Position numbers and translations under genes: made by a program | Shown: in pieces, positions 3,249 through 37,690 of the stretch | Layout: each line of letters starts with the position of its first letter | Numbering within the stretch: the first letter of the stretch is position 1 | Source: an uncultured Clostridia bacterium | GTDB lineage: Bacteria; Bacillota; Clostridia; UBA1381; UMGS1253 | Direction: 5' to 3' | Assembly: GCA_934456295.1 (NCBI GenBank) | Contig: CAKSHB010000002.1 | Span: forward strand, 12,513-76,512 | Length of the DNA: 64,000 bases | The notes under the pieces: model-generated | The model's input: the letters and a program-made list of their open reading frames with translations, nothing else | Database searches by the model: none | What the model was told of the DNA's origin: nothing

Positions 3249-4934
3249 GTGACGAAGGTGCCGGATTGTCTTACACTGAAAAAATCAAACTGCAAAAACT
3301 GTTATAAGTGTATTCGCCACTGTCCCGTAAAATCAATACGCTTTTCGGGAAATCAGGCACACATAGTCGGAGATGAATGTGTTTTGTGCGGACATTGTTT
3401 TGTGGTCTGTCCGCAGAACGCCAAGCAGATTGTAAACGAAACAGAGAAGGTGCGCGTGCTGCTTCAGAGCGGCGACCCTGTGATAGTAAGTCTTGCGCCG
3501 TCATTTGTTGCAAACTATGACGGAGTGGGAATTGAATCAATGCGTGCGGCGCTGAAAAAGCTTGGTTTTTATGACGCGGAGGAAACGGCAGTCGGAGCGA
3601 CAATTGTTAAAAACGAGTATGAGCGTATGCTTAGAGAGGAGAATAGGAATATTATAATATCTTCATGCTGCCATTCGATAAATCTGCTTATACAGAAATA
3701 TTTTCCGTCAGAACTGCCGTATCTTGCTGATGTTGTTTCGCCGATGCAGGCACATTGCAGTGATATCAAAAAGAGATATCCGAATGCAAAAACTGTTTTT
3801 ATCGGGCCATGCGTTGCAAAAAAGGACGAGGCAGAGAGATATTATGGTATAGTTGATGCCGTGCTCACATTTGAGGAACTCACAAAATGGTTTGAGGACG
3901 AAAAAATTGAACCTGAAAAGATGATTGATAATTATGAGGAAAGCCGAGCAAGATTTTTCCCGACAACGGGCGGCATACTGAAAACCATGCGCGAAAGACT
4001 GCCGGAATATACATATATGGCGATTGACGGTATTGATAACTGTATTACCGCACTTAAAGATATTGAGGAAGGAAATATACATAACTGTTTTATTGAAATG
4101 TCGGCATGTACAGGGAGCTGTATAGGCGGTCCCGTTATGGAAAAATACCATCGCCTGCCTGTGCGCGATTATATGTCGGTTGCAAAATTTGCGGGCAATA
4201 AAGACTTTGACGTAAAACAGCCCGACGCACTTGAAGTGCACAAGAATTTTGAAATAATTAACCACAGACAGCAAATGCCGAGTGAGCAGGAAATACACGA
4301 TATTCTCAGACAAATGGGCAAAATGAAACCGTCGGACGAATTGAACTGCGGTTCATGCGGATATAACACATGCCGCGAAAAGGCTGTGGCAATATATCAG
4401 GGCAAAGCCGAAATATCGATGTGTCTGCCGTTTTTGAAGGATAAAGCAGAGAGCTTTTCCGACAATATTGTAAACAACACTCCAAACGGCATTATTGTTT
4501 TAAACGAGAAGCTGGAGGTGCAGCAGATAAATACGGCTGCCAGAAAAATTATGAATATACGCTCAAGCGGCGATGTTCTGGGCTCACAGGTTGTACGGAT
4601 ACTTGACCCGGGAATATTTGCCGAGGTTTTGCAGAGCGGAAGGGATATAAGAGATCACAGAACATATCTTGCGGAGTATGGAAAATATGTTGAGCAGACG
4701 GTTATCTATGACAGCGGCTACCGCTTGCTTATATGCATTATGCGTGATGTGACAGATGAGGAGAAGGCGCGCGAAAAGAAGGAACGCATAGGGCGCCAGA
4801 CGGTTGAAACGGCGGATAAGGTTGTGGATAAGCAAATGCGTATAGTTCAGGAGATTGCATCGCTTCTGGGCGAAACTGCCGCAGAAACAAAGATTGCGCT
4901 TTCAAAGCTGAAGGAGTCGATTTCTGATGAATAA
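3249..4934 (+). CDS. hydS: putative sensory [FeFe]-hydrogenase (HydS/HfsB-like, group C) with C-terminal PAS domain
   Basis: Contains two N-terminal 4Fe-4S ferredoxin motifs and an H-cluster domain (SSCCHS, GPCVAKKDE, EMSACTGSCIGG). These are followed by an extra Cx2Cx4Cx16C motif (CGSCGYNTC...C), a PAS-like region and a coiled-coil tail. The true start may be GTG 3258, which has better spacing to AAAGGA. Confidence 0.85.
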   Translation: MTKVPDCLTLKKSNCKNCYKCIRHCPVKSIRFSGNQAHIVGDECVLCGHCFVVCPQNAKQIVNETEKVRVLLQSGDPVIVSLAPSFVANYDGVGIESMRAALKKLGFYDAEETAVGATIVKNEYERMLREENRNIIISSCCHSINLLIQKYFPSELPYLADVVSPMQAHCSDIKKRYPNAKTVFIGPCVAKKDEAERYYGIVDAVLTFEELTKWFEDEKIEPEKMIDNYEESRARFFPTTGGILKTMRERLPEYTYMAIDGIDNCITALKDIEEGNIHNCFIEMSACTGSCIGGPVMEKYHRLPVRDYMSVAKFAGNKDFDVKQPDALEVHKNFEIINHRQQMPSEQEIHDILRQMGKMKPSDELNCGSCGYNTCREKAVAIYQGKAEISMCLPFLKDKAESFSDNIVNNTPNGIIVLNEKLEVQQINTAARKIMNIRSSGDVLGSQVVRILDPGIFAEVLQSGRDIRDHRTYLAEYGKYVEQTVIYDSGYRLLICIMRDVTDEEKAREKKERIGRQTVETADKVVDKQMRIVQEIASLLGETAAETKIALSKLKESISDE

Positions 4935-6099
4935 TTTATGTGCCGACATAGGCTACAAAAGCATAAACCACTATGGCGAGCAGCTTTGCGGCGACCATGT
5001 TGACATAGTTGAACAGGATGAAAATTCGTCGGTGATTGTTTTGGCGGACGGTCTGGGAAGCGGAGTAAAAGCAAGTATCCTTTCAACACTTACATCAAAA
5101 ATTATTTCCACAATGATGTCGGAAGGGCTTGCGCTTGAGGATTGCGTCGAAACGATAGCGATGGCTTTACCCGTATGCTCGGTGCGCGGAGTTGCGTATT
5201 CAACCTTCACGATTATTCATTTGATAAACAATGAAACGGCGGAGGTAATTCAGTACGATAACCCCATGCTGATTTTAATTCGTGACGGCAGCAATTATGA
5301 CTATCCGAAAACAGAGCTTAATATCGGCGGCAAAAAAATATATAAATCTTCAATAAGCCTTATGGAAAATGATATTTTTGTTGCAATGAGCGACGGCTGT
5401 CCGCATGCGGGGATTGGAATTGCATATAATTTCGGCTGGAAGCGCGAGGATATCATATCGTTTCTTGAGCCTATATCCATGGCAGGATATACGGCAAAAA
5501 CAATATCGACAATGCTGGTTGATGAATGTAACAAGCTCTATGGCGAAAGACCGGGAGATGACGCAACGGCATGCGTTGTGCGTGTGCGCAGGCGTGAACC
5601 GATGAATTTGCTGTTCGGTCCGCCGTCAAACCGCGATGACTGTGACCGTATGATGTCTTTGTTCTTCTCAAAGGAGGGCAAACATATCATATGCGGAGGA
5701 ACCACATCATCAATTGCGGCAAAATATCTGAGAAAGCCGCTCAGGGCAAGCTTGAATTTTGAACAGTCCGATGTGCCGCCGATTGCACATATTGACGGAG
5801 TTGATTTGGTAACGGAGGGCGTTATAACAATAAACAAAGTGCTTGAATACGCAAAGGATTATTTGCAGGATAACGAGAGCTATAAGCAGTGGAACTATAA
5901 AAAGGACGGAGCCTCGCTTATATGTCAGCTTTTGTTTGAGGAGGCAACGGATATAAACTTCTATGTTGGCCGTGCAATTAACCCTGCACATCAAAATCCG
6001 GAGCTTCCGATTAATTTCAATATTAAAATGAATTTGGTGAAAGAACTGTCGGAATGTCTTAAAATGATGGGAAAGCGAATTAAGATAAGCTATTTTTAA
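4927..6099 (+). CDS. PP2C/SpoIIE-family serine phosphatase with an uncharacterised C-terminal domain
   Basis: The N-terminal ~220 aa carry PP2C-type motifs (LADGLGSGVKASILS, MSDG, GDDATA). About 165 aa with no motif I recognise follow. The start overlaps the hydS stop by 8 nt. Confidence 0.8.
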   Translation: MNNLCADIGYKSINHYGEQLCGDHVDIVEQDENSSVIVLADGLGSGVKASILSTLTSKIISTMMSEGLALEDCVETIAMALPVCSVRGVAYSTFTIIHLINNETAEVIQYDNPMLILIRDGSNYDYPKTELNIGGKKIYKSSISLMENDIFVAMSDGCPHAGIGIAYNFGWKREDIISFLEPISMAGYTAKTISTMLVDECNKLYGERPGDDATACVVRVRRREPMNLLFGPPSNRDDCDRMMSLFFSKEGKHIICGGTTSSIAAKYLRKPLRASLNFEQSDVPPIAHIDGVDLVTEGVITINKVLEYAKDYLQDNESYKQWNYKKDGASLICQLLFEEATDINFYVGRAINPAHQNPELPINFNIKMNLVKELSECLKMMGKRIKISYF

Positions 6100-6132
6100 A
6101 TATGTTATTTATAAGATATAGGAGGACGGCAA

Positions 6133-7575
6133 ATGCGGAAGTTTGATACAAAGGTGCAGCACTTGAAATATAAGGTTCTGCGGGAGGTTGCAAGACAAGC
6201 CTGGAATAATTCGCTTACCGAAAACATACTTGATATTCCGAAAACGATTATACCCGGAAACACGCCGACAATGCGCTGCTGTGTATATAAAGAGAGGGCA
6301 ATCGTGGCAGAAAGGGTTAAACTGGCAATGGGCGGAAACAGGGAAAATCCGAACGTGATTGAGGTTATAGAGATTGCGTGCGATGAGTGTCCCGTCGGCG
6401 GATACGAGGTCACAAATGCTTGCCGCGGCTGTCTTGCGCACCGCTGTGAGGATGTATGCAGAAGAGGTGCCATTTCGTTTGACCACAACCATGTTGCGCA
6501 CATAGATAAAACAAAGTGTGTGGAGTGCGGAGCATGCGCAAAGGTGTGCCCGTATACGGCGATTGTGAGCCAGAAAAGACCTTGCCAGAATGCATGTAAA
6601 ATCAAGGCGATTGAGATGAATGAGAACAAGGCGGCAAAGATTGACAATGATAAATGCATATCGTGCGGAGCATGCGTATATCAGTGCCCGTTCGGCGCAA
6701 TTATGGATAAATCCTACATACTTGATGTTATTGATTTGCTTAAAGACGCTCTGAAGTCAAAAAATGAGGACGGTGGCGAAAAAACGAAGCTTTATGCCGT
6801 GGTTGCACCATCGATATCAAGCCAGTTTCGCTATGCAAAGCTCGGACAGGTCATAACGGGGCTTAAAGAGCTTGGTTTTCACACTGTAATCGAGGCGGCG
6901 CTCGGCGCTGACATGGTTGCACATGCCGAGTCGAAGGAGCTTGCCGAAAAAGGCTTTCTGACAAGTTCGTGCTGTCCGGCGTTTGTGAGCTATATCGAGA
7001 AAAAATTTCCCGAACTGACGCCTTTTATATCGCACAATCTTTCACCGATGGCAACGATTTCAAAATATATAAAAGAAACAACGAAAAACGCAAAAGTTGT
7101 ATTTATCGGACCTTGTACGGCAAAAAAAGCCGAGGTGCAGAAAGACGAAGTGAAACCTTATGTTGATGCGGCGCTTACCTTTGAGGAATTGCAGGCATTG
7201 TTTGACAGCCGCGATATTGATATAACAACGCTCGGCGAGGGCGTTTTGGATAACGCTTCATATTTCGGCAGAATATTTGCGCGCTGCGGCGGACTTGCCG
7301 ATGCTGTTGCGGAAGGTCTGAAGGAACAGGGGATAGACGATTTTGACCTGAAGGCGGTTTCATGTGACGGCATAGAGCAGTGCAGAACGGCGCTGCTGAA
7401 AAAAAGCAGAAATGTGCTCGATGCCAACTTTATTGAGGGAATGGCATGCACGGGCGGCTGTATAGGCGGCGCAGGATGCCTTACGCACGGAGAGAAAAAT
7501 AAAGCCGAAGTTGATAAATACGGCAAAGAGGCGCTTGAAAAAACCATATCCGATGCGATATCGGTTCTGAAATAA
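6133..7575 (+). CDS. monomeric [FeFe]-hydrogenase (group B-like architecture; HfsD/HydA2 analogue)
   Basis: Cys-rich N-terminus (MRCCVYKERA, CDECP, CRGC..C), two 4Fe-4S ferredoxin motifs and H-cluster motifs TSSCCPAF, GPCTAKKAE and EGMACTGGCIGG. GGAGG RBS. Confidence 0.85.
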   Translation: MRKFDTKVQHLKYKVLREVARQAWNNSLTENILDIPKTIIPGNTPTMRCCVYKERAIVAERVKLAMGGNRENPNVIEVIEIACDECPVGGYEVTNACRGCLAHRCEDVCRRGAISFDHNHVAHIDKTKCVECGACAKVCPYTAIVSQKRPCQNACKIKAIEMNENKAAKIDNDKCISCGACVYQCPFGAIMDKSYILDVIDLLKDALKSKNEDGGEKTKLYAVVAPSISSQFRYAKLGQVITGLKELGFHTVIEAALGADMVAHAESKELAEKGFLTSSCCPAFVSYIEKKFPELTPFISHNLSPMATISKYIKETTKNAKVVFIGPCTAKKAEVQKDEVKPYVDAALTFEELQALFDSRDIDITTLGEGVLDNASYFGRIFARCGGLADAVAEGLKEQGIDDFDLKAVSCDGIEQCRTALLKKSRNVLDANFIEGMACTGGCIGGAGCLTHGEKNKAEVDKYGKEALEKTISDAISVLK

Positions 7576-30042: not shown

Positions 30043-31356
30043 TTGGAAAAGACATATTTTCATTCTGTAACGCTTGATAAAGATAAATGCATGGGTTGTA
30101 CAAACTGTCTGAAACGCTGTCCGACTGAGGCAATACGTGTGCGCAGCGGCAAAGCTCGGATTATAAAAGAAAGGTGCATTGACTGCGGAGAATGTATACG
30201 GGTCTGTCCGTATCATGCAAAAAAAGCTGTCACAGACCCTTTTGCAAAAACGGAAGAATATAAATATAAAATTGCGCTTCCGGCACCGAGTTTGTACGGA
30301 CAGTTTAATCAGCTTGATGATATAAACATAGTATTAAACGGATTGAAGAAAATAGGATTTGACGATGTGTATGAAGTCGCACGTGCGGCAGAAATTGTCA
30401 CAATTGCTTCAAAGGATTTTATTTTTAAAAAAAAGCTTCAGTATCCGATAATTTCGTCGGCATGTCCTGCCGTTGTGAGGCTGATACGTGTCAGATTTCC
30501 GAATTTGATAAAAAATCTGCTGCCGGTGCTTTCTCCGATGGAAGTTGCGGCAAAGCTTGCAAAAAAAGAGGCACAGAAGAAAACAGGACTTTCTCTTGAT
30601 GAAATAGGAGCATTTTTTATAACACCGTGTGCGGCGAAAATGACTGTCATAAAAGACCCGCTCGGTCAGGAAAAATCATATGTTGACGGTGCGATATCCA
30701 TGTCGGATATATATATGCGGCTTGTCAGTGCGATGAGCAAGGTTGATAATCCCGAAAACCTTGTGCGCTCGGGGCTTAAGGGCGTAGGCTGGGCGAGCAG
30801 CGGCGGTGAGGCATACGCTTTGGGAAAAGATGAGTACATAGCGGTAGACGGTATCGATAATGTTATAAAAGTGTTTGAGGGGCTTGAGGACGAACAGTTT
30901 CATAATATAAAATTTATTGAGGCGGGCGCATGCGTCGGGGGCTGTGTCGGAGGTCCGCTGGCTGTTGAGAACGGATTTGTTGCGGAAACAAAAATTAAGC
31001 TTCTTACAAAAATGCTTACCAGTTATGAGATGGAAAAAGCGTTTCCTTGTATAGATATGGAGGATGTAAGTTTTACTAAAGATATAGAGTATATTCCGGT
31101 AATGAAGCTTGACAGCGATATTTCGGAGGCAATGAAAAAGATGGAACGGCTTGAAAGAATATATAATTCAATGCCGAAAATAGATTGCGGCAGCTGCGGA
31201 GCGCCGTCATGCCGTGCACTTGCCGAAGATATTGTGCGCGGCTTCGGAAAAGAGATGGACTGTGTGCATAAATTGCGTGAACGAGTGTTTTCACTGGCAA
31301 AAGAAATGGTTGAAATACAGGAAAATATAACATTGTCCGAAAAAGGCGGCAAATAA
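30043..31356 (+). CDS. HydS-like [FeFe]-hydrogenase-domain protein without PAS/output domain
   Basis: Two 4Fe-4S motifs; H-cluster-domain motifs SSACPAV, TPCAAK and EAGACVGGCVGG; and a C-terminal Cx2Cx4Cx16C (CGSCGAPSC...C). TTG start. Confidence 0.8.
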   Translation: MEKTYFHSVTLDKDKCMGCTNCLKRCPTEAIRVRSGKARIIKERCIDCGECIRVCPYHAKKAVTDPFAKTEEYKYKIALPAPSLYGQFNQLDDINIVLNGLKKIGFDDVYEVARAAEIVTIASKDFIFKKKLQYPIISSACPAVVRLIRVRFPNLIKNLLPVLSPMEVAAKLAKKEAQKKTGLSLDEIGAFFITPCAAKMTVIKDPLGQEKSYVDGAISMSDIYMRLVSAMSKVDNPENLVRSGLKGVGWASSGGEAYALGKDEYIAVDGIDNVIKVFEGLEDEQFHNIKFIEAGACVGGCVGGPLAVENGFVAETKIKLLTKMLTSYEMEKAFPCIDMEDVSFTKDIEYIPVMKLDSDISEAMKKMERLERIYNSMPKIDCGSCGAPSCRALAEDIVRGFGKEMDCVHKLRERVFSLAKEMVEIQENITLSEKGGK

Positions 31357-31373
31357 GAAAAAGGGGTGGAAAT

Positions 31374-31700
31374 ATGACGGCGAAACAGCTTGCAAAGGAG
31401 CTTGAACTGACCGCACTTACAGACTGCGGCGATGATAAAGAAGTTGACGGCTGTTATATATGTGATTTGCTGAGTTATGTAATGAGTCATGCATCAAAGG
31501 GGAATGTGTGGATTACCGTGCAAACAAATATAAACGTTGTTGCCGTGGCTTCTCTGACGGAGGTCAGCTGTGTTATAATCCCCGAAAATATTGTAGTTGA
31601 GGATATCACGCTGAAGAAGGCTGCTGCTGAAAATATCACATTCTTTTCTTCGCAGCATACAGCATATGAGCTTGCCGGAAAGCTTTCGGAAATTATTTAA
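31374..31700 (+). CDS. DRTGG domain protein (second copy)
   Basis: 108 aa with the same domain layout as 29187-29537. GGGGTGG RBS. Confidence 0.6.
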   Translation: MTAKQLAKELELTALTDCGDDKEVDGCYICDLLSYVMSHASKGNVWITVQTNINVVAVASLTEVSCVIIPENIVVEDITLKKAAAENITFFSSQHTAYELAGKLSEII

Positions 31701-31720
31701 ACAGCGGGGAAGGTTTAAAT

Positions 31721-32446
31721 ATGAGATATTATTATGACTTCCACATACATTCATGTCTTTCGCCGTGCGGCGATGATGATATGACACCGAATAACATAGT
31801 AAACATGTCAATCTTGAAAGGGCTTGATATAATTGCCCTGACAGATCATAACTGCGCTGCAAATATTCCGGCTGTTTTAAAATGTGCCAAAGGCAGAATT
31901 ACTGTTTTATGCGGCATGGAAATTGAGAGCTGCGAAGAAGTTCATATGATATGTCTTTTTGACGAATGGAATAAATGCAGAAAGATGTGGGAGATTGTTC
32001 ATGCCGAGATGAATCCAATAAAAAATGATGCTGAAATTTTCGGCGAGCAGCTGATAATGAATGAAAATGATGAGATATCGGGAAAGATAGATAATTTGCT
32101 GGTTACCGCAACGCGCATGTCGGTATATGATATATGCAGAAGAGTACATGAAATGGGCGGAGTGTGCATAGCGGCACATGTGGATAAAAGCTCGTACAGT
32201 ATTTTATCGAACTTAGGTTTTATTCCCGATGACCTGAACATAGACTGTATTGAGATATCGCGCAGAGGAGATTGCGATAGCTTGTTTTCATCGAACGAAT
32301 ATCTGAAAAAATACATGGCTTTGTTCTCATCGGATGCACATTATTTGGAGGATATTTCAGAGAGAGAAAATTTTATGGAGATCGACGAAAATGTACATTT
32401 GAGCGCAAAATCGGTAGTTGAATTTCTCAAAAGAGAAAAACAATGA
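31721..32446 (+). CDS. PHP-domain phosphoesterase
   Basis: N-terminal YDFHIHSCLSPCGD, LTDHN and C-terminal SDAH metal-binding motifs typical of PHP. Confidence 0.8.
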   Translation: MRYYYDFHIHSCLSPCGDDDMTPNNIVNMSILKGLDIIALTDHNCAANIPAVLKCAKGRITVLCGMEIESCEEVHMICLFDEWNKCRKMWEIVHAEMNPIKNDAEIFGEQLIMNENDEISGKIDNLLVTATRMSVYDICRRVHEMGGVCIAAHVDKSSYSILSNLGFIPDDLNIDCIEISRRGDCDSLFSSNEYLKKYMALFSSDAHYLEDISERENFMEIDENVHLSAKSVVEFLKREKQ

Positions 32447-32651: not shown

Positions 32652-33140
32652 ATGAGTGAGAAAAAAGCAAGTACCTTTAAGGGTACAAAGCAGCAGGAGG
32701 AGCAGCTTTTGCAGGTTATTGAAAACCACAAAGGTCAGCCGGGAGCACTGATGCCGATACTTCAGGAGGCTCAGGAAATTTACGGTTATCTTCCGCTTGA
32801 AGTGCAGCAGATTATTGCTGAGAAAACAGGCATTACAATGGCTGAAATTTACGGTGTTGTAACATTTTACGCACAGTTTTCGCTTTATCCGAAGGGCGAG
32901 TACAAAATTGCAGTCTGTCTTGGTACGGCATGCTATGTAAAGGGTTCGGGAGATATTCTCGAGCGCATTAAGCAGCGCCTTGGGGTTGAAGTCGGACAGT
33001 GCAGTGCCGACGGAAAGTATTCACTTGACGCAACAAGATGTATCGGCGCATGCGGACTTGCTCCGGTATTGACTGTAAACGATGAGGTTTACGGCAGACT
33101 TACCGTAGATGATGTAGACGGTATTCTGGCGAAATATTGA
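32652..33140 (+). CDS. hydC: NuoE-like [2Fe-2S] subunit of NAD(P)-linked/bifurcating [FeFe]-hydrogenase (HydC/HndA)
   Basis: LPILQEAQ...GYL, CLGTACYVKGS and CIGACGLAP motifs. AGGAGG RBS. Confidence 0.9.
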   Translation: MSEKKASTFKGTKQQEEQLLQVIENHKGQPGALMPILQEAQEIYGYLPLEVQQIIAEKTGITMAEIYGVVTFYAQFSLYPKGEYKIAVCLGTACYVKGSGDILERIKQRLGVEVGQCSADGKYSLDATRCIGACGLAPVLTVNDEVYGRLTVDDVDGILAKY

Positions 33141-33144
33141 TACC

Positions 33145-33693
33145 ATGCAGGAATTATCGCTGCATATACTTGACATAGCTCAGAATTCGGTCGCGGCAAA
33201 AGCATCGCTGATAGAAATTGTTATTGATGAAAATGAGGCAAATGATACTCTCGATATAACAATCAGGGATAACGGCTGCGGAATGGACGAGGAAAAAGTA
33301 AAGAAAGTGCTTGACCCGTTTTATACAACAAGAACGACAAGAAAAGTCGGGCTTGGAGTACCGATGTATCGCGAGGCGGCGGTTTCGACAGGCGGAGATT
33401 TCAGGATTGAGAGCGTTGTCGGGGAAGGCACGGCGGTGTTTGCGCGTTTTGGTTATTCGCATATAGACAGACAGCCTATGGGCGATATCGGCAGTGTTAT
33501 ACATATTTTGATAACGGGAAATCCCGATATCGATTTTGTGTACAGGCATACGGTAAACGGCAGACAATTTGAGCTTGATACCCGCGAAATAAAAAAAATT
33601 CTCGGCGGTGTTCAGGTTTCCGATATGAGCGTCGGTATATGGCTTAAAGAATATATCAGTGAAGGAATTTCAAATTTATACGGAGGTGTTTAG
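33145..33693 (+). CDS. GHKL/histidine-kinase-like ATPase domain protein embedded in the hydrogenase operon
   Basis: N-box (LDIAQNS), G1 (DNGCGM) and G2 (GLGVPM). No DHp or phospho-acceptor His domain. Confidence 0.75.
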   Translation: MQELSLHILDIAQNSVAAKASLIEIVIDENEANDTLDITIRDNGCGMDEEKVKKVLDPFYTTRTTRKVGLGVPMYREAAVSTGGDFRIESVVGEGTAVFARFGYSHIDRQPMGDIGSVIHILITGNPDIDFVYRHTVNGRQFELDTREIKKILGGVQVSDMSVGIWLKEYISEGISNLYGGV

Positions 33694-33696
33694 ATA

Positions 33697-34068
33697 ATGA
33701 AATCATTGGAGGAATTGGCGGCTATAAGAGAAAAGGCTTTGAGCAGTATCCATATGCGCCATGACAGAATGGACGGCATAAGAATTGTTGTCGGCATGGC
33801 AACATGCGGTATAGCAGCAGGTGCACGTCCCGTACTCAATGCATTTGTTGAGGAGGTTGGCAAAAGAAAGCTTACAGATGTTGTGGTTACACAAACAGGC
33901 TGCATAGGTATGTGCCGTCTTGAGCCTATCGTTGAGGTTTACATGCCCGGCAAAGAAAAGGTTACATATGTAAAGCTTGATGCTGATAAAGCACGTAAGA
34001 TTGTTTCTGACCATATTGTGAACGGCAAGATTTGTACAGAGTATACAATCGGTGAGGCTGACAAGTAA
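33697..34068 (+). CDS. thioredoxin-like [2Fe-2S] ferredoxin (HndB/HydD-like)
   Basis: 123 aa with the MATCGIAAGA ... GCIGMCRLEP pattern. GGAGG RBS. Confidence 0.8.
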   Translation: MKSLEELAAIREKALSSIHMRHDRMDGIRIVVGMATCGIAAGARPVLNAFVEEVGKRKLTDVVVTQTGCIGMCRLEPIVEVYMPGKEKVTYVKLDADKARKIVSDHIVNGKICTEYTIGEADK

Positions 34069-34126: not shown

Positions 34127-35920
34127 ATGGATTTGTATAGAAGCCATGTGTTGGTCTGCGGCGGTACCGGTTGTACTTCGTCGGGTTCTGCAAAAATTAT
34201 AGAAGAACTTAAGACACAGCTTAAGGCACAGGGAATTGATAAAGAGGTTATGGTTGTAAAGACCGGCTGTTTCGGTCTTTGCGCATTGGGTCCGATTATG
34301 GTCGTATATCCCGAAGGCGCATTTTACAGCATGGTGCAGCCCGAAGATGTAAAGGAAATCGTTGAAGAGCACCTTGTAAAGGGCAGAATTGTAAAAAGAC
34401 TGCTTTATTCGGAAACAGTGCATGAAGATGACAACATAAAGTCTTTAAATGAGGTTGATTTTTACAAAAAGCAGATGCGTATAGCGCTGCGTAACTGCGG
34501 TGTAATCAATCCCGAGAAGATTGAAGAGTACATAGCATTTGACGGATATAAAGCACTCGGCAAGGTGCTTACGGAAATGACACCCGAGCAGCTTATTGCA
34601 GAGATGAAGGCTTCGGGACTTCGCGGCCGCGGCGGCGCAGGTTTCCCGACAGGCGTAAAGTGGGAGTTTGCATCAAAATCGGTTTCGGATCAGAAATATG
34701 TCTGTTGTAACGCCGACGAAGGCGACCCCGGCGCATTCATGGACAGAAGCGTACTTGAGGGCGACCCGCACTCGGTAATTGAGGCTATGGCAATCGCAGG
34801 TTATGCAATCGGCGCAAACCAAGGCTATATTTATATCAGAGCTGAGTACCCGATTGCTGTTGAAAGACTCAGAATTGCAATCGGACAGGCTCGCGAATAC
34901 GGCTTGCTCGGTAAAAATATTTTCGGAACAGACTTTGACTTTGACCTTGACATAAGACTTGGCGCCGGCGCATTTGTGTGCGGCGAGGAAACGGCTCTTA
35001 TGACATCTATCGAAGGCAAGCGCGGTGAGCCGAGATGCCGTCCGCCTTTCCCGGCAGTAAAAGGACTTTTCGGTCAGCCTACTGTTCTTAACAATGTTGA
35101 AACATATGCAAACATTCCGGTTATTATCAATAAGGGTGCTGAATGGTTTGCATCAATCGGCACAGAAAAGAGCCATGGTACAAAGGTATTTGCACTTGGC
35201 GGAAAAATTAACAATACAGGCCTTGTTGAGGTTCCCATGGGAACAACGCTGCGTGAAATCGTTGAGGAAATCGGCGGCGGTATTCCGAACGGCAAGAAGT
35301 TCAAGGCTGCACAGACAGGTGGACCTTCGGGCGGATGTATTCCGGCATCACTTATTGATACACCGATTGATTATGACTCACTCATAAGCATCGGTTCAAT
35401 GATGGGCTCGGGCGGACTTATTGTTATGGACGAAAATACATGTATGGTTGATATTGCAAAGTTCTTCCTTGAGTTTACGGTTGATGAGTCGTGCGGAAAA
35501 TGCGCACCGTGCAGAATTGGAACAAAGAGAATGCTTGAAATTCTCGAAAAAATAACAAGAGGCACAGGAACGCTTGAAGATATAGACAGACTTGAAACTT
35601 TGTGCAACAATGTTAAGCAGTCGGCTCTGTGCGGTCTCGGACAGACGGCGCCCAATCCTATTTTAAGCACACTGCGTTACTTCAGAGATGAATATATTGC
35701 TCACGTTGTTGACAAAAAATGTCCTGCCGGCGTATGCAAACACCTTCTCAGCTACAGCATAGACCCCGAGAAGTGCAGAGGCTGCGGACTTTGCGCAAAA
35801 CAGTGCCCTGTTGAAGCAATCAGCGGCGAAATTAAGTCGCCGTTCAGCATTAATACAACAAAATGTATTAAGTGCGGCGCTTGTGAGAGCAAATGTCCGT
35901 TTAAGGCAATTTCTAAATAA
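34127..35920 (+). CDS. hydB: NuoF-like FMN/NAD(P)H-binding subunit (HydB/HndC)
   Basis: N-terminal Trx-like 2Fe-2S, GRGGAGFPTG (FMN), ESCGKCAPCR (N3-type cluster) and two C-terminal 4Fe-4S motifs. Confidence 0.93.
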   Translation: MDLYRSHVLVCGGTGCTSSGSAKIIEELKTQLKAQGIDKEVMVVKTGCFGLCALGPIMVVYPEGAFYSMVQPEDVKEIVEEHLVKGRIVKRLLYSETVHEDDNIKSLNEVDFYKKQMRIALRNCGVINPEKIEEYIAFDGYKALGKVLTEMTPEQLIAEMKASGLRGRGGAGFPTGVKWEFASKSVSDQKYVCCNADEGDPGAFMDRSVLEGDPHSVIEAMAIAGYAIGANQGYIYIRAEYPIAVERLRIAIGQAREYGLLGKNIFGTDFDFDLDIRLGAGAFVCGEETALMTSIEGKRGEPRCRPPFPAVKGLFGQPTVLNNVETYANIPVIINKGAEWFASIGTEKSHGTKVFALGGKINNTGLVEVPMGTTLREIVEEIGGGIPNGKKFKAAQTGGPSGGCIPASLIDTPIDYDSLISIGSMMGSGGLIVMDENTCMVDIAKFFLEFTVDESCGKCAPCRIGTKRMLEILEKITRGTGTLEDIDRLETLCNNVKQSALCGLGQTAPNPILSTLRYFRDEYIAHVVDKKCPAGVCKHLLSYSIDPEKCRGCGLCAKQCPVEAISGEIKSPFSINTTKCIKCGACESKCPFKAISK

Positions 35921-35944: not shown

Positions 35945-37690
35945 ATGGAAATGGTTAATATTAAAATTAACGGCTTAGATGTAAGCGCGCCCAAAGGTTC
36001 TACAATACTTGAAGCCGCACGTCTTGCCAATATAGATATACCCACGCTCTGCTATCTGAAAGATGTAAACCAAATCGGTTCGTGCAGAATGTGCGTAGTT
36101 GAAATAAAAGGCGCAAGAAGCCTTCAGGCTGCTTGTGTTTACCCCATAAACGAGGGTATGGAAATATTTACAAATTCACCGGTTGTTCGTTCGGCAAGAA
36201 AGACAACACTGGAGCTTATACTTTCAAATCACGATAAAAAGTGTCTGACATGCGTACGAAACAGAAATTGTGAACTTCAGAAGCTTTCGGACGAACTTGG
36301 TATCACGGAACTGCCGTATGAACCTGTTCATGAGGAGGAAAAGGCTGCAATTGACGATTTGTCACCGTCAATCGTTCGCGATAACAATAAATGTATTCTT
36401 TGCCGCCGCTGCGTAAGCGTATGTAAGAACATACAGACAGTCGGCGTTATCGATGCAAAGGAAAGAGGTATTGCGACAAATATCGGATGTGCATTTGATA
36501 AATCACTCAGCGAGGTTGCATGTGTAAACTGCGGTCAGTGTATAACGGCATGTCCTGTCGGTGCTCTGACAGAAAAGGACGATACGAAAAAAGTTTGGGA
36601 AGCAATCCATGATGACGACAAGTATGTTGTTGTTCAGACTGCGCCTGCTGTAAGAGCGGCTCTCGGCGAAGAATTCGGCATTGAGATGGGCAAGGCTGTA
36701 ACGGGCAAAATGGTTGCGGCGCTTCGCAGACTTGGTTTCAACAAAGTATTTGATACAGATACAGGTGCCGACCTTACAATCATGGAAGAAGGCACAGAGG
36801 TAATTGACAGAATTACAAACGGCGGAAAGCTGCCTGTAATTACATCATGCAGCCCTGGCTGGGTAAAATTCTGTGAGCATAATTATCCCGAGTTTTTGGA
36901 CAATCTTTCAACGGCAAAATCGCCTCATGAGATGTTTGGCGCTGTTATAAAGACATATTACGCAGAAAAACAGGGTATTGACCCCAAGAGCATTGTAAAT
37001 GTATCGGTTATGCCGTGTACGGCAAAGAAGTTTGAGGCTGCAAGAGAGGAGCTTGCCAACGGTGAACTGCGCGATGTAGATGTTGTAATCACAACGCGCG
37101 AACTTGCAAGAATGATTAAAGAAGCAGGTATTGATTTTGCGGCTTTGCCTGATGAGGAGTTTGAAAATCCGTTCGGTGCAGCTACGGGCGCAGGCGTAAT
37201 TTTTGGCGCTACAGGCGGCGTTATGGAGGCTGCTCTGCGTACAGTTGCGGAGATTTTGTCCGGAGAAACTGTTCCCGAGGACAGCTACAGTGTTGTTCGC
37301 GGAACCGATGGCATAAAGCGTGCTGAGGTTGAAATTGCAGGCAAAAAGATAAAGGCTGCCGTTGCACATGGTCTCGGCAATGCAAGAAAGCTTCTTGACG
37401 CCATAAAAGCAGGCGAGGAGAGCTATGATTTTGTTGAGATAATGGCTTGTCCCGGTGGCTGTGTAACCGGCGGCGGTCAGCCTATCGTTTCGGCAAAAAC
37501 GCAGATGGATATTGATGTAAAGGCTACACGTGCAAAGGCGCTTTATGACGAGGATAAGTCGCTTCCGCTCAGAAAGTCGCATGAAAACCCCGTTATCAAA
37601 ACTCTGTATGATGAGTATTTTGAAAAGCCCGGTTCGCATAAGGCACATGAGCTTTTGCACACACATTACCATAAGAGAAATTTGTATTAA
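35945..37690 (+). CDS. hydA: [FeFe]-hydrogenase catalytic subunit, multimeric NAD(P)-linked type (HydA/HndD, group A3-like)
   Basis: N-terminal 2Fe-2S, His-ligated 4Fe-4S and 2x[4Fe-4S]. H-cluster motifs are MPCTAKKFE and EIMACPGGCVTGGG, but L1 reads TSCSPGW (see findings). Confidence 0.93.
   Translation: MEMVNIKINGLDVSAPKGSTILEAARLANIDIPTLCYLKDVNQIGSCRMCVVEIKGARSLQAACVYPINEGMEIFTNSPVVRSARKTTLELILSNHDKKCLTCVRNRNCELQKLSDELGITELPYEPVHEEEKAAIDDLSPSIVRDNNKCILCRRCVSVCKNIQTVGVIDAKERGIATNIGCAFDKSLSEVACVNCGQCITACPVGALTEKDDTKKVWEAIHDDDKYVVVQTAPAVRAALGEEFGIEMGKAVTGKMVAALRRLGFNKVFDTDTGADLTIMEEGTEVIDRITNGGKLPVITSCSPGWVKFCEHNYPEFLDNLSTAKSPHEMFGAVIKTYYAEKQGIDPKSIVNVSVMPCTAKKFEAAREELANGELRDVDVVITTRELARMIKEAGIDFAALPDEEFENPFGAATGAGVIFGATGGVMEAALRTVAEILSGETVPEDSYSVVRGTDGIKRAEVEIAGKKIKAAVAHGLGNARKLLDAIKAGEESYDFVEIMACPGGCVTGGGQPIVSAKTQMDIDVKATRAKALYDEDKSLPLRKSHENPVIKTLYDEYFEKPGSHKAHELLHTHYHKRNLY

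Follow-up and report, generated by a model that had tools for sequence, protein, structure and literature searches.

The canonical H-cluster motifs (Meyer/Vignais) are L1 (TSCCPxW), L2 (MPCxxKxxE) and L3 (ExMxCxxGCxxGGGQP). In CpI, the monomeric, ferredoxin-dependent hydrogenase of Clostridium pasteurianum, four residues ligate the [4Fe-4S] subcluster of the H-cluster ([4Fe-4S]H); these include C300, the second Cys of TSCCP. Residue C503 acts as the bridging Cys.

In HydA1 of Acetobacterium woodii, residue Ser301 replaces the Cys ligand of [4Fe-4S]H that corresponds to C300, as reported by Katsyv et al. (2023; PMC10021017). The enzyme belongs to the electron-bifurcating complex HydABC(D), and the infrared (FTIR) signatures and catalytic activities of A. 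woodii HydABC were similar to those of its Thermoanaerobacter kivui counterpart (PMC10021017). The anaerobic A. woodii cryo-EM map has a resolution of 3.4 Å, and the Fe–O(Ser) bond is thus a modelled assignment that is not spectroscopically proven.

The same substitution has been engineered into the algal enzyme CrHydA1. Kertess et al. (2017; PMC5855289) observed that the variant C170S keeps its [4Fe-4S] cluster and inserts the [2Fe] subcluster slowly. After long maturation, C170S reached 231 µmol H2/min/mg, compared with 728 µmol H2/min/mg for the unmodified enzyme, and showed a bias towards H2 evolution (PMC5855289). The variant C170A was dead, and [2Fe] was not inserted (PMC5855289).

A natural Ser at this position was also remarked upon by Di Rienzi et al. 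(2013; PMC3787301), who found TSCSPGW in the trimeric ‘confurcating’ hydrogenases of Melainabacteria ACD20 and noted it as a departure from TSCCP. Both ACD20 proteins also lose the Cys of motif 3, and may be non-catalytic. Apart from this remark and the work of Katsyv et al. in 2023, no dedicated study of a natural Ser ligand was found in the literature searched.

The hydA gene and its L1 motif

The 64,000-nucleotide stretch of DNA analysed here (the window) derives from an uncultured gut Clostridia lineage, with Candidatus Aphodoplasma (88%) as its nearest named relative. On its forward strand, positions 35945–37690 encode a 581-residue protein, identified from its translation, NCBIfam and Pfam matches and structural relatives as the catalytic [FeFe]-hydrogenase subunit (HydA) of a HydABC-type complex. 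The product scored 934.9 bits (cut-off 765) with NF040763, which NCBIfam names ‘NADH-dependent [FeFe] hydrogenase, group A6’, and the match spanned the entire model (1–571 of 571); with the group A model TIGR02512 it scored 552.7 bits (cut-off 405.95). The Pfam domains Fer2_4, NADH-G_4Fe-4S_3, Fer4_Nqo3, Fe_hyd_lg_C and Fe_hyd_SSU together make up a full F-domain and H-domain. Judged by score, motifs, domains and operon, hydA is a HydABC-type [FeFe]-hydrogenase of group A (HydDB A3; NCBIfam ‘A6’). Some HydABC-type operons encode non-bifurcating NADH-dependent enzymes.

The L1 motif lies at positions 36842–36856 (+), where the DNA reads ACA TCA TGC AGC CCT and encodes T300-S301-C302-S303-P304 within ...GGKLPVITSCSPGWVKFCEHNYPE... 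of the translated ORF; the L1 region of the translation reads ...GGKLPVITSCSPGWVKFCEHNYPEFLDNLSTAKSP.... Sequence and translation thus bear out the reading of the earlier note, including its remark that the Ser303 codon AGC (36851–36853, +) is a single base away from TGC. In HMMER alignments to solved structures, residue C302 pairs with the proton-relay Cys (CpI C299), which is therefore kept, and residue S303 faces C300 of CpI and C299 of T. kivui HydA (TkHydA), the second Cys of their TSCCP motifs.

The other two motifs are canonical, as the earlier note had also stated. L2, (V)MPCTAKKFE, contains residues C358 (CpI C355) and K361, and its segment PCTAKKFE is encoded at 37013–37036 (+). L3 (EIMACPGGCVTGGG) is encoded at 37448–37471 (+), and its C502-PGG-C506-VTG core aligns residues C502 and C506 with CpI C499 and C503. 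Only L1 departs from the canonical form, as the Ser variant TSCSPGW that is also present in the active, structurally solved A. woodii member.

The best match among solved structures was indeed A. woodii HydA1 (7Q4V, 7Q4W and 8A5E), with an E-value of 1.7e-240 for 7Q4V and 61% identity over 575 residues. The two enzymes share the L1 motif ITSCSPGW (ITSCSPGWIKF in A. woodii), the domain order, L2, L3, and NuoE-like and NuoF-like partners; they differ seven residues downstream of the Ser, where A. woodii HydA1 has KFIET (Ile) and hydA has KFCEH (Cys310). T. kivui HydA (8A6T) and CpI (3C8Y, 4XDC) are 52% and 47% identical to hydA, respectively, and resemble it in F-domain, H-domain and proton pathway, but both have TSCCP and all-Cys ligation of [4Fe-4S]H. 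The Ser variant itself is therefore already known, having been described in an active orthologue of solved structure.

The remainder of the active site is intact. The three other H-cluster cysteines (C358, C502 and C506) and K361 are all kept. The proton-transfer pathway of CpI (C299, E279, S319, E282 and R286) maps by alignment onto residues C302, E282, S322, E285 and R289 of hydA, all of which are present. In the F-domain, the accessory-cluster residues C50, H96, C100, C103, C109, C150, C153, C156, C160, C193, C196, C199 and C203 are invariant, and correspond to one [2Fe-2S], one His-ligated [4Fe-4S] and two further [4Fe-4S] clusters. Residue S303 aside, the predicted protein shows no sign of decay.

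Conservation of the Ser state

As a single residue is untestable against chance, conservation was used as the relevant test. TSCSP was present in all 120 of the closest database homologues (protein clusters; 72–100% identity), which share the pattern TSCSPGW[IV]KFCEHN[FY]. A genome scan, which took one genome per species and used patterns that permitted either Ser or Cys at site 303, gave TSCSP in 80 of the 80 best species-level loci (58–72% identity). The hosts of these loci include Lachnospiraceae, Oscillospiraceae, Ruminococcus, Blautia, Faecalicatena contorta, Thermoanaerobacter thermocopriae and Thermovenabulum.

All six Ser codons are used at the homologous loci: TCA 30 times, TCT 15, AGC 14, TCC 8, TCG 8 and AGT 6 (n = 81, including L001, a copy of the window's own contig). 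The nearest genomes, at 72% identity, have TCA at the site, compared with AGC in the window, and an NJ tree of the locus proteins shows at least 8 changes between TCN and AGY codons. Each such change needs two substitutions, so it is the amino acid, rather than the codon, that is maintained by selection.

The earlier note had considered a sequencing or assembly error, with TGC as the true codon, and the single-base difference between AGC and TGC is what such an error would produce. However, a protein identical to the hydA product is recorded on at least three contigs, and Ser occupies the site in 120/120 homologues and in 80/80 loci of different species through six different codons, which rules out an error and leaves it with virtually no probability.

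It had likewise raised an inactivating point mutation, which would make hydA a decaying or non-catalytic copy. A canonical cluster-ligand residue is replaced by Ser, and engineered C170S does reduce the activity of CrHydA1. Against this, the ORF is full-length and matches the whole of NF040763, all other catalytic and cluster residues are intact, and the operon is conserved; Ser has been kept over 58–100% identity despite the codon-family switches, which indicates selection for Ser, and the A. woodii enzyme with an identical motif is active. An inactivated hydA is thus extremely improbable.

The frequency of the Ser state was estimated from the top 150 cluster representatives (clustered at 50% identity), counting only those that keep the proton-relay Cys. 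Site 303 was Ser in 20 and Cys in 99 of these (Ser ~17%), with the Ser forms concentrated in those clusters that are closest. An H-domain NJ tree, constructed with the L1 columns masked and no bootstrap, placed the window protein and 7Q4V within a clade in which 14 of 14 members have Ser. In the wider neighbourhood of this tree, for which there are no support values and the deep nodes are unreliable, Ser- and Cys-type enzymes interleave. Because of this interleaving, a single origin of the Ser state is not claimed, and no number of Cys/Ser transitions is drawn from a tree that carries no support values.

On this distribution, Ser at the site is a trait of a broad subfamily and is probably not confined to one lineage. 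The suggestion of a genuine clade variant has accordingly stood up, given TSCSP across the 120 close homologues, the 80 loci and A. woodii HydA1. The earlier note had also held that TSCSP would be a family trait if it proved to be the norm in active bifurcating orthologues; this is the case for the Ser-type subfamily, and TSCSP is therefore a family trait and not an anomaly.

For annotation, this means that TSCSP in L1 should not be read as the mark of a broken or non-catalytic protein, contrary to the implication of the 2013 Melainabacteria analysis; unlike the ACD20 proteins, hydA keeps L3. TSCSP is instead the signature of a functional HydABC subfamily that is widely distributed and often encountered in acetogens and in gut Lachnospiraceae, Oscillospiraceae and Ruminococcus.

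Ligation of the [4Fe-4S] subcluster

It is proposed that hydA encodes a functional HydABC catalytic subunit, linked to NAD(P)H and ferredoxin, in which Ser303 is most likely the fourth ligand of [4Fe-4S]H, with a normal H-cluster and activity expected; by analogy with A. woodii, this reading is very probably correct. The O-gamma of Ser303 would supply an O-donor ligand, as in A. woodii HydA1, residues C358, C502 and C506 would provide the other three ligands, and C302 would remain the proton relay. By comparison with A. woodii and CrHydA1, a normal H-cluster would be assembled and the enzyme would be active. The present analysis shows the residue, its conservation, an active site that is otherwise intact, and an intact operon. 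The literature contributes Ser ligation, normal FTIR signatures and activity for A. woodii, and tolerance of a Cys-to-Ser exchange for CrHydA1.

CrHydA1 C170S resembles hydA in having the Cys-to-Ser exchange at the identical ligand position. It differs in being an artificial single mutant of an M1-type enzyme, with slow maturation and lowered activity, whereas the natural Ser-type enzyme is reported to be fully active. As the engineered C170S is slow to mature and less active, natural Ser-type enzymes must have a compensating context. The contrast between the failing C170A and the working C170S suggests that the hydroxyl is the functional group.

The variant could also be genuine with Ser303 as a bystander, the fourth iron being ligated by Cys310, Cys302 or solvent; the earlier note had proposed that ligation passes to C302 or to the Cys of KFCEH. 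Residue Cys310 (TGT codon, 36872–36874, +), seven residues past Ser303, is kept in 120/120 close homologues and in 74 of the 81 genome loci. In addition, the ligands cannot be told apart in a 3.4 Å map, and Kertess et al. deemed coordination by OH− or H2O possible for Ala variants (PMC5855289).

However, position 310 is Ile in A. woodii HydA1, in which Ser is the assigned ligand, and varies between Ile, Cys, Met and Val across the Ser-type representatives; conversely, Cys is found there in 9 of the 99 Cys-type representatives. Assuming a helix downstream of P304, position 310 would lie about two turns from position 303. Residue C302 is the invariant proton relay, and the inability of C170A to insert [2Fe], which C170S can do, indicates that the hydroxyl matters. 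Since Ser-type enzymes do not uniformly keep Cys310, and A. woodii lacks it, this residue is unlikely to substitute for the missing Cys. The proposal of a Cys taking over ligation is thus unsupported, and a bystander role for Ser303 as a whole is improbable.

With Ser303 as the preferred fourth ligand, O-ligation may tune the potential of the cluster or its catalytic bias, as general Fe-S chemistry and the bias of C170S would suggest. A mutual-information scan of the 20 Ser-type against the 99 Cys-type representatives, aimed at a Cys that might compensate for or replace the lost one, gave no column that clearly co-varied with Ser303. Position 299 leans towards Ile in the Ser-type and towards Phe in the Cys-type members of the same set.

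A more speculative and rather doubtful extension is that the choice between Cys and Ser at the fourth [4Fe-4S]H ligand acts as an adaptive knob, setting potential, H2-evolution bias or maturation kinetics, which has been flipped repeatedly in HydABC-type enzymes, with Cys310 in the gut-Clostridia branch as a possible second-sphere or redox-protective partner. Ser- and Cys-type enzymes are intermixed in the tree, and switches between TCN and AGY could pass via TGY (Cys). No description of this idea was found in the searchable literature. Natural H-clusters with Ser or Cys ligation, set in almost the same scaffold, form a series that could be used to gauge the effect of O-ligation on [4Fe-4S]H potential and catalytic bias; such a comparison would be a modest follow-up and not a discovery.

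The hyd operon

The hydA gene ends a cluster with the order hydC–HATPase–ferredoxin–hydB–hydA, in which all genes are intact, and the same order recurs in most of the related genome loci that have enough flanking sequence. All genes of the cluster lie on the forward strand. The first, hydC (32652–33140), encodes a NuoE-like [2Fe-2S] subunit of 162 residues, identified by PF01257 (172.7 bits), NCBIfam and synteny. It is followed by a 182-residue HATPase_c (histidine-kinase-like ATPase) protein (33145–33693; Pfam and synteny). The hydB gene (34127–35920) encodes the NuoF-like FMN/NAD(P) subunit of 597 residues, with the domains Complex1_51K, NADH_4Fe-4S, SLBB, 2Fe-2S_thioredx and Fer4, a match to TIGR01959, and conserved synteny.

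Between the HATPase gene and hydB, positions 33697–34068 encode a 123-residue protein that has no Pfam match at 1e-5. Its CG...GCxGxC Cys pattern gives it the look of a thioredoxin-like [2Fe-2S] ferredoxin, and it is kept at this place in most of the related loci. It is thus a conserved operon member and a putative ferredoxin, a function suggested by its sequence pattern and synteny. The maturase genes hydE, hydF and hydG were not found among the Pfam-scanned ORFs of the window up to ~56 kb, where the search for them yielded only housekeeping genes.

Other hydrogenase genes and further observations

The window contains three further hydrogenase-domain paralogues, and all of them keep a Cys immediately before the Pro or His of L1, as the earlier note had pointed out. 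Upstream of the hyd operon, positions 30043–31356 (+) encode a HydS-like, putative sensory [FeFe]-hydrogenase paralogue, identified from its motifs, Pfam matches and synteny, with SSACP as L1. Its proton-relay Cys is replaced by Ala, L2 is altered (TPCAAKM), and a CGSCGAPSC Fe-S domain is present. The gene is followed, within 30043–32446 (+), by a 108-residue ORF that has no Pfam match and then by a PHP-domain protein. In more than 20 related loci, the pair of HydS-like and PHP genes keeps its synteny with the hyd operon, and in L001 a HATPase_c_2 gene lies directly upstream of the HydS-like paralogue.

A second hydrogenase module of three genes occupies positions 3249–7575 (+). The first gene (3249–4934, +) encodes a HydS-like protein of 561 residues, recognised by its motifs: L1 is SSCCH, with His for the usual Pro, L2 is GPCVAKKDE and L3 is MSACTGSCIGGP. 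A CGSCGYNTC Fe-S domain (PF04060) is present as well, and the protein carries a long extension at its C-terminus. Overlapping it is a gene for a SpoIIE/PP2C phosphatase (4927–6099, +; Pfam), followed by a monomeric group-B [FeFe] hydrogenase (6133–7575, +) with TSSCCP as L1 and a TIGR04105 score of 571.6 bits against a cut-off of 450. From its gene content, the module looks like a sensory hydrogenase and a phosphatase that regulate a catalytic hydrogenase.

Near the start of the window, a 669-residue ORF (69–2078, +) contains Fe-dependent alcohol dehydrogenase domains that do not begin until residue 229, and its first ~228 residues have no Pfam match at 1e-6. The N-terminus of this ORF may be diverged or truncated AdhE-like sequence.

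Two database entries recovered in the searches are also unusual. The top match of the representative search (P0121) is a protein of 4122 residues with seven separate HydA-matching stretches, and is either a giant fusion of multiple hydrogenase domains or an artefact of gene calling or assembly. A locus binned as Alistipes sp. (Bacteroidota; L068, JAMPAJ010000010.1) has a hydA with TSCSP, 60% identical to that of the window, and clusters with Ruminococcus loci L058, L059 and L073 in the NJ tree of locus proteins; a binning error is the probable cause, with horizontal transfer as the less likely one.
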